A stretch of DNA of 62,449 nt from IMG/VR virus record IMGVR_UViG_3300020442_001526, positions 1-62,449 of that record. One strand, 5' to 3'. Positions within the stretch are counted from its first letter, which is position 1; every line of letters starts with the position of its first letter. Under the pieces are notes generated by a model. That model was given only the letters and a program-made list of their open reading frames with translations. It ran no database searches and was not told the DNA's origin. Made by a program: the position numbers and the translations under genes. This DNA is from a virus (taxonomy: Duplodnaviria > Caudoviricetes). Shown here piece after piece: positions 9,065-24,327 of this stretch.

Positions 9065-9599
9065 TTTGGATTTTACGCAAGGCTAAATCTGTTTCCAACA
9101 ATCTTAATTGTTTATTTCGTTTTTTCATTGCACGTTGTAATTTCATATCACTTGCATACTCTAAATAAAGTTTTCCTTGCAAATGGTCATACTCGTGCAG
9201 GAAACATCTTGCGTCTATTCCTTCTAACCAATCTTCAACGACTTCTTTGTCAACAGTTTGAAATCTTACTTTTACTTTTTTAGGTCTTGTAACAATAAAA
9301 TATAATAATGGGAAAGTTAAACAACCTTCTTCCATTGCAACTGATTCATCGCTTAATTCTAATATCTCAGGATTGTAAATACCTACATCTTCTCCTGTTG
9401 CAAATGTCATTACAAACATTCTATGATTACTGCCTATTTGGGGAGATGCAAGTCCAATACCAAACCTATCTTTCATAAGTTGTATCATTTGTTTTTCTCT
9501 ATCTTCCCAATCAATATCTTTATCATCAAAAGGATTTACAGTTGCTTCTAAGTGAAGAACTGGAGTTTTTGGTTCTACTAATTTAATATCTACTGACAT
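9054..9599 (-). CDS. def: peptide deformylase
   Basis: GIGLASPQIG, EGCLT, HEYDHLQG. Confidence 0.95.
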   Translation of the reverse strand: MSVDIKLVEPKTPVLHLEATVNPFDDKDIDWEDREKQMIQLMKDRFGIGLASPQIGSNHRMFVMTFATGEDVGIYNPEILELSDESVAMEEGCLTFPLLYFIVTRPKKVKVRFQTVDKEVVEDWLEGIDARCFLHEYDHLQGKLYLEYASDMKLQRAMKKRNKQLRLLETDLALRKIQNES

Positions 9600-10086
9600 A
9601 TTTCTTTTTTTCTAAAGTTTTATTTAAATAAATTACTTCTGCTAAAGGTGTAACTGCTTTATGAATAGCATAAAATACAGTTGCAAACACCATTGTACTA
9701 CCTAATAGTCTAATATCAAATAGCAATGCTTCTGGTGATAATGGTGGGAAAGGCCCTGGAATGTTCACAATTAAGTGCCATAAAACAACACTTAATACAG
9801 AAGTTCCCATTAGTGTTGAGTACTGACCCTTATTTAAAACCCGGGAGATGACGCCTATAAGGCCCATTGTTCCGTAGGTTAGCCACATTGTGCTGTAAAA
9901 ACCCAAGAATATGTCTGTAATAAACATTAAACTTACAGGCAAAAACATTTGCAAATTCTTATTAGAAGTCATGTACGGCAAAAAAACTGCCATAGCAATA
10001 ACAGGAGTTATGTTTGCTGGTAATATAAATCTAGATAATAAAATACAGCCTAATAATAATCCTGCACTCTTGAAGAAATCTTTCAT
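9583..10086 (-). CDS. multi-pass membrane protein, DUF6580/BtuM-like ECF S-component
   Basis: SR..P.NITPV.AMA.F, LMFITD.FLGFY; about 5 hydrophobic helices. Confidence 0.55.
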   Translation of the reverse strand: MKDFFKSAGLLLGCILLSRFILPANITPVIAMAVFLPYMTSNKNLQMFLPVSLMFITDIFLGFYSTMWLTYGTMGLIGVISRVLNKGQYSTLMGTSVLSVVLWHLIVNIPGPFPPLSPEALLFDIRLLGSTMVFATVFYAIHKAVTPLAEVIYLNKTLEKKKYVSRY

Positions 10087-10091
10087 ACAAC

Positions 10092-10099
10092 TATTTATC
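10092..10099 (-). promoter_or_regulatory. late promoter GATAAATA, ATG 5 nt downstream
   Basis: GATAAATA-GTTGT-ATG. Confidence 0.7.
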
Positions 10100-10106
10100 G
10101 GAAAAT

Positions 10107-10385
10107 TTATGCACTGGATCTACAATATGAATCTATTAATGCGTCACCTTTTAGTTCTTCTCCAAAGGTGTGTACATGCTTTCCATTTCTTTGACGTATA
10201 ATTACGCCACTGTTATAAGTTGTGTCTGTGACTGGGCCGTTTACTTCTATTTCTTTTTTGGTAAAGTCTGTTTCGTACCACATAGATGTTAAACTATGAA
10301 TTTGTATACAAGCAACACCTTTTGCCCATTCTTCTGCTTCTAGTAATAGTCTTTGTCTTTCGACTCTATCGTCGTATTGTCCCAT
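10107..10385 (-). CDS. hypothetical protein (MGQYDDRVERQR...)
   Basis: Longer ORF call overlaps tRNA-Thr; ATG 10385 lies 7 nt after a consensus -10 box. Confidence 0.7.
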   Translation of the reverse strand: MGQYDDRVERQRLLLEAEEWAKGVACIQIHSLTSMWYETDFTKKEIEVNGPVTDTTYNSGVIIRQRNGKHVHTFGEELKGDALIDSYCRSSA

Positions 10386-10392
10386 AATGTTT

Positions 10393-10421
10393 ATTATAAT
10401 GAAATTAATAGTCTTTGTCAA
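10393..10421 (-). promoter_or_regulatory. sigma70-type promoter TTGACA-N17-TATAAT
   Basis: Perfect consensus and spacing. Confidence 0.85.
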
Positions 10422-10424
10422 GAA

Positions 10425-10500
10425 TGGAGCCACCTGTCAGATTCGAACTGACGACCTATGGTTTACAAAACCATTGCTCTACCAACTGAGCTAAGGTGGC
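10425..10500 (-). tRNA. tRNA-Thr (TGT)
   Basis: 76-nt cloverleaf GCCACCTTAGCTCAGTTGGTAGAGC...TGT...GTTCGAATC...CCA. Confidence 0.97.
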
Positions 10501-10529
10501 AAATTCTAATACTATTTATTTAAAAAAAC

Positions 10530-10604
<75 letters not shown>

Positions 10605-10610
10605 AAAACT

Positions 10611-10940
10611 TGGCGGGATGGTTTGCAGTTTACACTCATGTCGAGTAATAAATTGTGGACTTGGTGTTGTTTCGCAAACCTGTCCCAGCCCGAGCCTTTT
10701 TTCAGGCCCCTATTCTTTCTACACAAATCGTTTTATAGACGTCGATTAGTCGTCTTGCAAAGTTATGTTATAAGTATTAAAGTGCAGTAAACACCGGCGC
10801 ACCGCGGGAAAAGTTGCACTATTAGTTAATAAGGTACACTTAAGGACTTTACTGGGCACGGTTCAAACTACTCTGTATCGTGGTGTATTTTATTACACTA
10901 TCCCACCTAATATACGAAATACCACTCGTTTATTAACTAT
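10611..10940 (-). ncRNA. unassigned multi-domain structured RNA(s) at the head of the tRNA operon
   Basis: No long ORF; own sigma70 promoter; several stems, an H-type pseudoknot and a final 76-nt CCA-ended unit. Confidence 0.65.
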
Positions 10941-10946
10941 AAAACT

Positions 10947-10974
10947 ATTATACTGATTTTTAGATAAAAGTCAA
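10947..10974 (-). promoter_or_regulatory. sigma70-type promoter TTGACT-N16-TATAAT for the RNA/tRNA cluster
   Basis: Near-consensus; shares TTGACTTTTAT...TATAATAGTTTTAT with the primase promoter. Confidence 0.75.
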
Positions 10975-11110
10975 CCGTTTTTGAAAAATATTTTTTGTGA
11001 TTTAAAACCTAGAGTATTGGGCTAAAACACTACAGCTCGTCTGAGCGAAGCGATGTTTTGCACCGCATTGCAAAAACATTTGCAGATGATAGCATATTTT
11101 TTTGGTTTTG

Positions 11111-11338
11111 TCAACCTTCTGCTTCTTTGAATTTTAAGGATACTAGATATTCTTCTAAATTTTCTACGTCTTTTTCTAATTTTTGTAATGCTTGTTTAGG
11201 ACTAATTCTTTCTATTCTAGCAATTTGTGTAGCAACAAAAATTAAATCATGTCTACCTAAATCAAACTTTTTTAGAATAAGTTGGATATCAGGCTGTTCT
11301 AAATGTGCTTCGTCTATAGATTTATTACTTCTACTCAT
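11111..11338 (-). CDS. hypothetical protein
   Basis: 75 aa, overlaps upstream stop. Confidence 0.65.
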   Translation of the reverse strand: MSRSNKSIDEAHLEQPDIQLILKKFDLGRHDLIFVATQIARIERISPKQALQKLEKDVENLEEYLVSLKFKEAEG

Positions 11339-12080
11339 TTACTATTACCGCTGTTTTTTGTACATGACCCGATATAGGATATTTTATTTCTACATTATGT
11401 AAGTATTCTTTTAACCACTCAACATTATATATCGTAACTAAGTGATTTACAGGCGTTTTACCGAATAAATGATCCAAAAGTAAATCATTATCTACAAAAT
11501 ATTTAAAATCATTTATATCACACATCAAAATATCCTTGTGACTTAAACATTTTTTATTGGGATAATCCAGTACACGTTTTTTTGTAAAATACTCTGCAGA
11601 GTCCTTGTCTACAAATGTTAATCCAATTTGTCCACCAGGCTTACATACACGTTTGATTTCTGCTAAGTCAAATACAAATTGTTCAAATGTTGTATGACTA
11701 TAAACACTATATGCTAAAACATAATCAAAGGTATTATCCTCAAAAGGAAATAATGTGTTTTCTGTTCCTGTAGGATTATACATGTGATTAAATGCATTGT
11801 GGTGAATCCAATTTGCGTCTGGAAAATTTTGTTTACCGTCTTCTAATGATTTTTTGTCTACATCTAAACAATAATAATCACTAGGTTTTATAGATGCTGA
11901 TACGCCATCTTTTAAAAAATTTCCATTATTGCCACCAATATCTAAAATCTTTTTATTTTCCCAAGTAGGATTTTTAAACATTACATTAAAAAAAGGTAGC
12001 CTTGGGTGTCTTGGAAAAAGACTAGACTGCTGAGACCATTCTACATCATTGTTCAATAAATCTTGAACTGAATCGTTCAT
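11331..12080 (-). CDS. class I SAM-dependent methyltransferase
   Basis: ILDIGG, LDVD, FDYVLAYSVYSH, RVCKPGG. Confidence 0.85.
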   Translation of the reverse strand: MNDSVQDLLNNDVEWSQQSSLFPRHPRLPFFNVMFKNPTWENKKILDIGGNNGNFLKDGVSASIKPSDYYCLDVDKKSLEDGKQNFPDANWIHHNAFNHMYNPTGTENTLFPFEDNTFDYVLAYSVYSHTTFEQFVFDLAEIKRVCKPGGQIGLTFVDKDSAEYFTKKRVLDYPNKKCLSHKDILMCDINDFKYFVDNDLLLDHLFGKTPVNHLVTIYNVEWLKEYLHNVEIKYPISGHVQKTAVIVNE

Positions 12081-24176: not shown

Positions 24177-24205
24177 GTCATCCTCCTCAATTAATTAAGT
24201 TAGAT

Positions 24206-24327
24206 GCGTTCCTTCGGTTACTGTCGGTCTCGTTCGGCGATTGCCTACTTGCTTGCCTATCTTTTCAGATAGAGGTTTTCAGGTTACCTACTTCCGTTCA
24301 CTGCTACATTTAGAGTGAATGAACGAT
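24206..24327 (-). ncRNA. glnA-type (glutamine-I) riboswitch with an extended P3 containing a second aptamer-like unit
   Basis: ATCGTTCA-TTCAC..GTGAA-CGGAAGTAGG...CCGAAGGAACGC; P1 CGTTC/GAACG; AGUA/GAA E-loop; upstream of a DUF4278-like ORF. Confidence 0.8.

Follow-up and report, generated by a model that had tools for sequence, protein, structure and literature searches.

The window, meaning the whole stretch of 62,449 nucleotides that was analyzed, is a virus record (IMG/VR; completeness 21% by CheckV) of a marine T4-like myovirus whose DUF6267 protein is about 40% identical to proteins of cyanomyoviruses, Pelagibacter phage HTVC008M and Methylophilales phage Melnitz. Its minus strand carries, in this order, a sigma-70-type promoter match (10974-10947), a structured element that we call motif-2 (about 10938-10824), a linker of 109 nt (10823-10715), a second structured element, motif-1, tRNA-Glu(UUC) (10604-10530; called by ARAGORN and by Rfam at 60.8 bits) and tRNA-Thr(UGU) (10500-10425; ARAGORN and Rfam), which is the last RNA of the unit. 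The promoter (TTGACT, 16 nt, TATAAT) was recognized by its match to 11 of 12 consensus positions only, and would start the RNA operon near 10940. It is one of three strong sigma-70-type matches on the minus strand; another (10421-10393) follows tRNA-Thr, and the third (11114-11086; TTGACA, 17 nt, TATCAT with a TG) lies ahead of the main RNA-operon promoter and would yield a transcript of about 100 nt from a segment (10975-11114) with no minus-strand ORF of at least 40 aa. The whole 10389-11110 interval contains no plausible ORF, and a scan of 9500-12000 for intrinsic terminators returned 0 sites.

The first-pass annotation had singled out 76 nt of this operon, from 10686 down to 10611 on the minus strand, as a CCA-terminated RNA that is not a tRNA. 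The sequence is as described (GGGACAGGTTTGC...GCAAACCATCCC-G-CCA), and the reported 6-nt gap to tRNA-Glu is the spacer AGTTTT (10610-10605). ARAGORN calls only tRNA-Glu and tRNA-Thr, and the noted lack of a T-loop agrees with the silence of both ARAGORN and the Rfam tRNA model (RF00005), the latter giving no match on 10605-10719 even at E ≤ 10 and none on motif-1 in 15 other family members. Rfam 15 (4227 models) gave no family at gathering thresholds and none at E ≤ 10 on 10300-11100, and its ribozymes, riboswitches and phage RNAs gave no match to motif-1 in the window or in the 15 members. The predicted folding energy of the 76-mer is -23.2 kcal/mol (z = -4.84), which 0 of 200 shuffled sequences equaled. 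What did not stand was the delimitation: the conserved unit reaches 28 nt further 5′, to 10714, and the supposedly free-standing RNA makes up the 3′ two-thirds of an approximately 110-nt motif (10714-10605).

Motif-1 belongs to a family represented here by 100 distinct sequences, taken from viral contigs and from contigs of marine metagenomes. Scanning IMG/VR for exact 24-mers returned a single close relative, L002, which matches all 76 nt even though its spacers are different; its tRNA-Glu carries a compensated change, and most of its tRNA-Thr diverges. A scan for the outer-stem pattern (GGGACAGG, 40-70 nt, CCATCCCGCCA) found 55 loci, 49 of which were judged by eye to form one family; the remaining 6 are G+C-rich and lack common flanks. 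Because all 49 conserve further upstream sequence (..AATAGGGG..hairpin..CTCGGG..), the unit must be longer than 76 nt. A scan for the 5′ part (CTCGGG, 2-3 nt, GGGACAGG) gave 120 loci, including 31 family members as recognized by regular expression, and a scan that forced neither GGGACAGG nor CCA gave 107 loci with 69 distinct sequences. In this last set GGG(G)ACAGG was present in 67/69 and GGGAUAGG in the other 2, and NCCA followed CCAUCCC in 69/69, with one or two extra bases before NCCA in six. A metagenome scan contributed 115 loci, 91 of which pass the motif-1 covariance model.

A search over one genome per prokaryote species returned 50 loci, 49 of them chance hits in G+C-rich genomes. 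The one that passes the model (L274, 1485-1601, minus strand; 112.4 bits, equal to the commonest phage variant) lies on a 16.7-kb contig in a Synechococcus MAG bin, and may represent phage DNA in the bin or a hint of the host. The AAUAG tail lay outside three of the scan patterns and each conserved block was unforced in at least one scan. Every scan nevertheless forced some part of the core, which leaves divergent members under-represented and makes some of the apparent invariance a product of the search design.

Motif-1 is a previously uncatalogued structured RNA family, absent from Rfam 15, subject to the contents of the IMG/VR catalogue of 8495 candidate viral RNAs (Fremin et al. 2023, PMC10690425), which may already include it. 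Within the supplementary text of that survey, which does not cover its alignments, the motif strings were not found, and six contig identifiers are absent from its supplementary file 4 (PMC10690425). A blastn search of cultured phages with one family member gave no match at E ≤ 1, a threshold that the conserved block of 16-17 nt could not reach. The covariance model (R1) gave no significant hit to any of five complete genomes, those of HTVC008M, Melnitz, S-CAM9, DSL-LC02 and T4 (best E = 0.255).

The conserved fold opens with a single-stranded tail, AAUAG (10714-10710), whose A-A-U-A-G columns are invariant in the initial alignment (A2), and a hairpin, P1 (10709-10692; GGGCC/GGCUC with an invariant G.U and the loop UGAAAAAA), seen in the minimum free energy fold and in 99 copies. 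A linker G (10691) then leads into a long interrupted hairpin. In the alignment of 100 sequences (A4) this starts with the P2a 5′ strand, GGC (10690-10688), and a bulged U (10687). It continues with P2b (GGGA/UCCC; 10686-10683/10618-10615), a CA opposite an A (10682-10681/10619), all three conserved and unpaired, P2c (10680-10673/10627-10620), an A-rich internal loop (10672-10668/10631-10628), P3 (10667-10658/10642-10632) and an apical loop of 15 nt that is A/U-rich (10657-10643); the P2b, P2c and P3 helices rest on folds and covariation, and the last two loops on folds. The P2a 3′ strand, GCC (10614-10612), closes the helix; an invariant A (10611), present in 99/99 copies, comes next, and the trailer AGUUUU (10610-10605; family consensus R-W-U-U-U-U) runs up to tRNA-Glu. 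The acceptor-like long stem of the first-pass annotation therefore exists, as merely the middle of a longer helix. The small ACTC/GAGT hairpin described along with it is not the conserved inner fold (L121 and L135 read ACAC); the covarying helix there is P3.

A plain MAFFT alignment yielded only 11 pairs with RNAalifold, owing to misalignment, and the structure was therefore set by hand on A2, from which model R1 was built and used to realign first 50 (A3) and then 100 (A4) distinct sequences. In A4, 90.3% of 2476 cells fall in standard pairs compared with 75.6% in shuffled alignments, 375 cells are changed on both sides compared with 116, and the covariation score is 0.372 compared with 0.100, a value that 0/500 shuffles attained; sliding the 3′ partners by 1-3 columns lowered the score to 0.094 or less. 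The minimum free energy fold of the window's own copy (10716-10605; -38.3 kcal/mol, z = -4.09) matches the consensus arrangement. Three variable P2c pairs show double changes in 52-56 of 100 sequences and the P3a pairs in 38, 50, 4 and 7, while the inner register of P3 varies between subfamilies, with the paired fraction falling to 69.5%. P2c is 5-8 bp long in RNAfold predictions for about 50 members, as read by eye. P1 has 4-6 consecutive pairs over 99 copies, often with loops of the GAAA or UUCG type, and its base is G-C in 99/100 and G.U in 99/100, the invariant G.U making the fold specific to RNA of the minus strand. Inserts in P1 reach about 60 nt; that the length of P1 is free is shown by five loci (L148, L211, L256, L322 and L401), which carry inserts of about 45-60 nt that are themselves hairpin-like.

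The unpaired bases of motif-1 that are conserved, namely AAUAG, the CA/A loop and the A after CC, together with GGG(G)ACAGG in 67/69 sequences of the unforced scan, suggest a specific tertiary fold or a partner. Several other structures and functions were considered and rejected. Pairing of the 5′ and 3′ tails into a three-way junction is not indicated, as the mean longest complement was 5.64 compared with 5.84 for shuffled partners, and no pseudoknot or tail-tail helix exceeded chance. The apical loop was compared, by eye only, with the AAUA tail and with GUAAAUU of motif-2; pairing with either was inconsistent across members. Coding through motif-1 is contradicted by P1 lengths that differ by non-multiples of 3 and by covarying stems, and a T4-type late promoter in the tail by the occurrence of AAAUAG in only 8/99 tails.

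CCA is invariant in 99/99 parsed full-length distinct copies, and the first-pass annotation had read it, with the base before it, as a free discriminator and CCA. Instead, that base pairs with a base 5′ of GGGA in 99/99 parsed copies. Its partner lies among the 1-4 bases between GG and GGGA, in C-G (47), U-A (25), A-U (12), U.G (8) and G-C (6) pairs and one two-base version; 4 of the 99 copies were flagged as unpaired by the script, and the alternative parse GGG-AA-G-GGGA/UCCC-C-CC gives them a G-C pair. In A4 the third P2a pair is correspondingly C-G in 48, U-A in 25, U.G in 8, A-U in 2 and G-C in 2. The two Cs of NCC pair with two invariant Gs (G-C in 100/100 and in 99/100). Because N covaries with an upstream base and the Cs pair with invariant Gs, the so-called discriminator is base-paired and NCC belongs to helix P2a. 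A free NCCA tail is contradicted in the form that is under selection, and a later cleavage that frees it would be compatible with these data.

Beyond the CCA, the sequence is R in 98/99 copies, W in 95/99 and then U in 90, 94, 83 and 70 of 99. The window's own tRNA-Glu and tRNA-Thr also encode CCA, which in tRNA-Glu is followed by G and seven Ts. In the current model for E. coli tRNA precursors, as given in the abstract of PMC2190699, RNase E first cuts 1-3 nt 3′ of the encoded CCA. On account of its CCA and R-W-UUUU trailer, the matching arrangement after tRNA-Glu and this model of RNase E action, the 3′ side of motif-1 resembles that of a bacterial tRNA gene. The first-pass proposal of a non-tRNA RNA is borne out, motif-1 being conserved within a phage tRNA transcription unit and having an invariant CCA and a tRNA-like U-rich trailer; the interpretation that came with the proposal is partly supported.

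Motif-1 is a single-copy element in 6/6 records, with one copy in the 62-kb window (by R1) and exactly one in every member of a set of five contigs (55-121 kb). Among 99 distinct loci, same-strand tRNAs lie downstream in 36, and tRNAs lie upstream in 0 and on the opposite strand in 0; where at least 600 nt of downstream flank is available, tRNAs are found in 24/49. In other loci a small ORF intervenes, and tRNA-Ala and tRNA-Thr begin about 320-620 nt downstream of motif-1. Most copies sit tightly between two ORFs. An upstream ORF was called in 65 loci and its stop falls in the UAA/UAG of the motif-1 tail in 48 of them, which we read as tight packing, since the tail offers stop codons in one frame only. 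The flanking proteins are unrelated to one another (DUF7220 membrane proteins, a gp33-like late-transcription coactivator, endonuclease VII, an epimerase, a WYL_2 protein and many without a family), and these heterogeneous neighbors indicate no partner protein. Homologues of the downstream 93-aa protein occur at 80 loci, without tRNAs except at L003, and a tie between this gene and motif-1 was rejected, as R1 found no motif-1 in the 79 homologue loci searched.

Motif-1 is carried by one group of uncultured marine T4-like (Kyanoviridae-related) myoviruses, and is conserved in more than a hundred of these phages. The window has other features of note. A glutamine riboswitch aptamer (RF01739, 50.4 bits) lies at 24203-24327 on the minus strand, about 290 nt upstream of a 161-aa ORF (23912-23427). 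Cargo unusual for a phage occupies 28333-31008, 38749-47018 and 8219-9599 (minus strand), and includes an 891-aa Mtd_N-domain (tropism determinant) protein, a Cu/Zn superoxide dismutase domain within a 562-aa protein, an amidoligase domain within a 2193-aa protein, a GH6 glycosyl hydrolase and a peptide deformylase.

RNA libraries from four studies also contain contigs with motif-1. Fifteen RNA-labelled runs hold part of a 741-nt stretch around it; four of them, one per study, are used here, and the other 11, many with small shares, are left aside. The evidence consists of assembled contigs, which carry no ends, starts or strand and could include DNA carry-over. A 281-nt contig in one library (X1) covers 10607-10884 and is continuous over motif-1, the linker and part of motif-2. 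In a second (X5), a 298-nt contig aligned to 10570-10699 bridges tRNA-Glu and motif-1 and then continues into a different upstream sequence, that of a relative, and a third (X9) holds a contig of a similar relative on 10625-10698. Separate contigs of 161-189 nt fall on 10727-10920 in X5, X7 and X9. The outer flanks of the stretch, 10380-10404 and 10930-11120, are uncovered in all four runs, which carries no evidential weight.

Motif-2 is a second uncatalogued structured RNA, linked to motif-1 and to tRNA-Glu. It lies upstream of motif-1 in 21/99 loci, 18 of which have the adjacent tRNA-Glu, and in the window it begins at the predicted transcription start; the same order of promoter and motif-2 is seen in L135, L331, L181, L364 and L409. 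Its fold, defined from 22 distinct copies and alignment A5, has a covarying outer stem, a core (..GGUAUUUCGUA..GGG/CCC..GUGUAC.. in the window) with a 4-bp helix GGUM/KACY (GGUA/UACC in the window), a GGG/CCC helix and long invariant joining strands (..UUUCGUA.. and ..RGUG..), and an optional, lineage-specific insert. All 266 of 266 cells are paired in the 22 copies, compensatory changes occur at 9/14 pairs and the covariation score is 0.638 compared with 0.203. No Rfam family matched it (E ≤ 10 in the window; members also searched), and blastn against cultured phages gave chance-level hits only. The 109-nt linker to motif-1, which carries hairpins of its own (e.g., GUGCA...UGCAC), is kept only in near relatives (L002/L147, L389 and L419); the spacing is 66-68 nt in L331 and L135 and 17-24 nt in most other loci.

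What, then, might motif-1 do? In our judgment it is probably, if by no means certainly, a non-decoding stable RNA of about 110 nt, made from phage tRNA operons, freed by tRNA-type processing and acting in trans as a whole fold. It lies at the head of the phage tRNA cluster and would be co-transcribed with the tRNAs; at the base of its long hairpin the upstream GGN strand pairs with the NCC of the invariant NCCA. Host tRNA-maturation enzymes might then excise it from the precursor, with the 3′ side freed either by RNase P at the 5′ end of the next tRNA or by RNase E in the R-W-UUUU trailer, after which 3′ exonucleases would be expected to halt at the CC of the helix. Motif-1 could thereby persist as a stable small RNA, probably one that binds a protein or an enzyme. 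Two observations sit poorly with this account: the placement between two ORFs would also suit a cis-acting signal, and CCA is not free if the GGN strand stays attached, which leaves the invariance of CCA unaccounted for.

An alternative is that RNase P cuts 5′ of G10686 and releases the 76-nt hairpin with a free N-CCA, making it a mimic of the tRNA acceptor that is aminoacylated, CCA-extended or used as a decoy. CCA is invariant while the neighboring N varies, N is a purine in 80/98 single-base cases, position -1 is invariably a bulged, unpaired base and G+1 pairs with C, as this alternative would have it; P2b, the mismatch and P2c make 12-13 stacked layers in the window, and the phage's tRNA-Glu and tRNA-Thr encode their CCA too. 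Bacterial RNase P, according to passages of PMC4919922, reads RCCA through pairing with the GGU of L15 and cleaves several non-tRNA and phage RNAs, among them pre-4.5S RNA and "phage-induced regulatory RNAs" (C4). We nevertheless consider such a cut unlikely, because the covariation of N with the upstream base shows selection for a helix in which N, C74 and C75 would be concealed from RNase P. Moreover, P2a would be pointless were its 5′ strand discarded. The variable P2c (5-8 bp) provides no fixed 12-bp ruler, P1 and AAUAG are conserved as well as the 76 nt are, and the X1 contig runs unbroken across 10686/10687. There is also no T-loop and no anticodon-like loop, and the more specific suggestion of a decoy for anticodon nucleases is unsupported, the apical loop being about 15 nt long and A/U-rich.

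A different class of explanation is that motif-1 acts in cis within polycistronic transcripts, as a partial intrinsic terminator or attenuator or as a processing or stability hairpin between an upstream mRNA and a downstream tRNA or mRNA. Such a signal would not need a promoter of its own, and it would fit the usual position of motif-1 between a stop codon (UAAUAG, 48/65) and the next ribosome-binding site, with the next start often 10-21 nt after CCA, as well as the G+C-rich base of the helix and the conserved U run 2-3 nt later. Generic signals recur in a genome, however, whereas motif-1 is found once per record (6/6). The terminator scan found 0 sites, the U run begins only 2-3 nt past the helix, and tRNA-Glu follows the CCA of the window's copy by 7 nt without a promoter. 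At 19 of 99 loci tRNA-Glu(UUC) begins within 12 nt of the CCA (7-12 nt downstream) with no promoter between, which implies transcription through motif-1, and the conserved unpaired bases and ornate inner fold exceed what a terminator needs. We therefore regard a cis-acting role as quite unlikely.

The clamped CCA invites a more speculative thought. The antiterminator bulge of T-box RNAs, UGGN, pairs with the NCCA of a tRNA. The base of motif-1 resembles this bulge and the GGU of RNase P L15 in that GGN pairs with N-C-C, with N covarying with the base opposite. It differs in that the pairing takes place within one molecule and the A after CC lies across from G and not U, and motif-1 belongs to neither family. 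Its internal GGN would hold NCCA as L15 or the T-box bulge holds a tRNA end. Motif-1, with motif-2, could conceivably be a self-clamped mimic of the tRNA 3′ end that titrates or steers a CCA-reading enzyme (RNase P, the CCA-adding enzyme or a toxin of host defence acting on tRNA acceptor ends by modification or cleavage), or else a new small class of operon-processing ribozyme, though we hold this pair of ideas to be rather improbable.

Catalysis or ligand sensing may also be considered more generally, with motif-1 as an aptamer or as a novel self-cleaving ribozyme by which the precursor of the tRNA operon is trimmed. Theta ribozymes flank phage tRNA genes elsewhere, and the highly conserved junction and bulge nucleotides, variable peripheral stems and compact core of motif-1 would be in keeping with such a role. 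It appears very unlikely nonetheless, since no Rfam ribozyme or riboswitch matched in the window or in 15 members, the unrelated downstream genes argue against a riboswitch, there is no pseudoknot or tail-tail helix beyond chance, and RNA-library contigs span the whole of motif-1. Most improbable of all is a counterpart of put, a processive antitermination element that modifies RNA polymerase, in which two hairpins would act in cis to allow read-through into the tRNA cluster: two hairpins joined by a single-nucleotide linker, placed early in a transcription unit, always preceding the tRNAs in the same orientation and present in low copy number, would look the part, but there is no sequence or model similarity to catalogued antiterminator RNAs, many copies lie far from visible promoters within strings of ORFs, and the invariant CCA and trailer are left unaccounted for.

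Returning to a stable RNA released from the tRNA operon, the T4 species 1 and 2 RNAs (RNAC and RNAD; NC_000866 70908-71171), the analogy drawn in the first-pass annotation, are a fair comparison and the nearest known counterparts. They too are small non-tRNA RNAs whose genes sit within a tRNA cluster, that of phage T4, next to a tRNA and in the orientation of the tRNAs, much as motif-1 is a non-tRNA RNA gene co-oriented with tRNAs (36/99 loci). RNAD ends in ...CACCA and so has CCA in common with motif-1, and the T4 RNAs form a pair, as do motif-2 and motif-1 where they abut a tRNA. RNAC, unlike motif-1, has a T-arm-like GGUUCGAAUCC, and RNAC and RNAD lie at the distal end of the tRNAs whereas motif-1 and motif-2 lie 5′ of them. 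With filters off, R1 gave no hit at either gene in the rnaC/rnaD region (best elsewhere 10.4 bits), and nothing significant in the whole T4 genome. The rnaC gene (NC_000866 70908-71046; L258 2909-3047) ends in ...GGCGUUUCGUACA and shares the heptamer UUUCGUA with an invariant strand of motif-2, which is probably chance. The function of RNAC and RNAD is still unknown, according to the relevant passages of PMC9697503.

Two further groups of RNAs are looser analogies. GOLLD and ROOL are structured RNAs of phages and prophages without known function, described in part of bioRxiv 10.1101/2024.12.08.627333 as "often near tRNA islands," with a marine GOLLD downstream of a tRNA. Motif-1 is like them in being a structured phage RNA associated with tRNA genes, and unlike them in fold and in size, as they are 5-8 times larger; no Rfam match to them was found here. 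The non-tRNA substrates of RNase P, pre-4.5S RNA and the C4 antisense RNA of phages P1 and P7, are hairpins of about tRNA size whose paired 5′ and 3′ ends are followed by an RCCA-like tail. Motif-1 differs in that its NCC is already paired to the internal GGN strand, and no Rfam family was found on it at E ≤ 10, a search that covers the C4 and 4.5S/SRP models if Rfam has them.

Phage tRNA clusters have long been known for unexplained stable RNAs, and motif-1 adds to these a widespread marine family of at least 100 distinct sequences with an unusual trait, an invariant CCA clamped by an internal strand. Motif-1 and motif-2 are candidates for RNA family catalogues. They also provide testable RNAs for understanding the role that the RNAs of tRNA islands have in infection, which may lie in the control of tRNA processing, in counter-defence or elsewhere.
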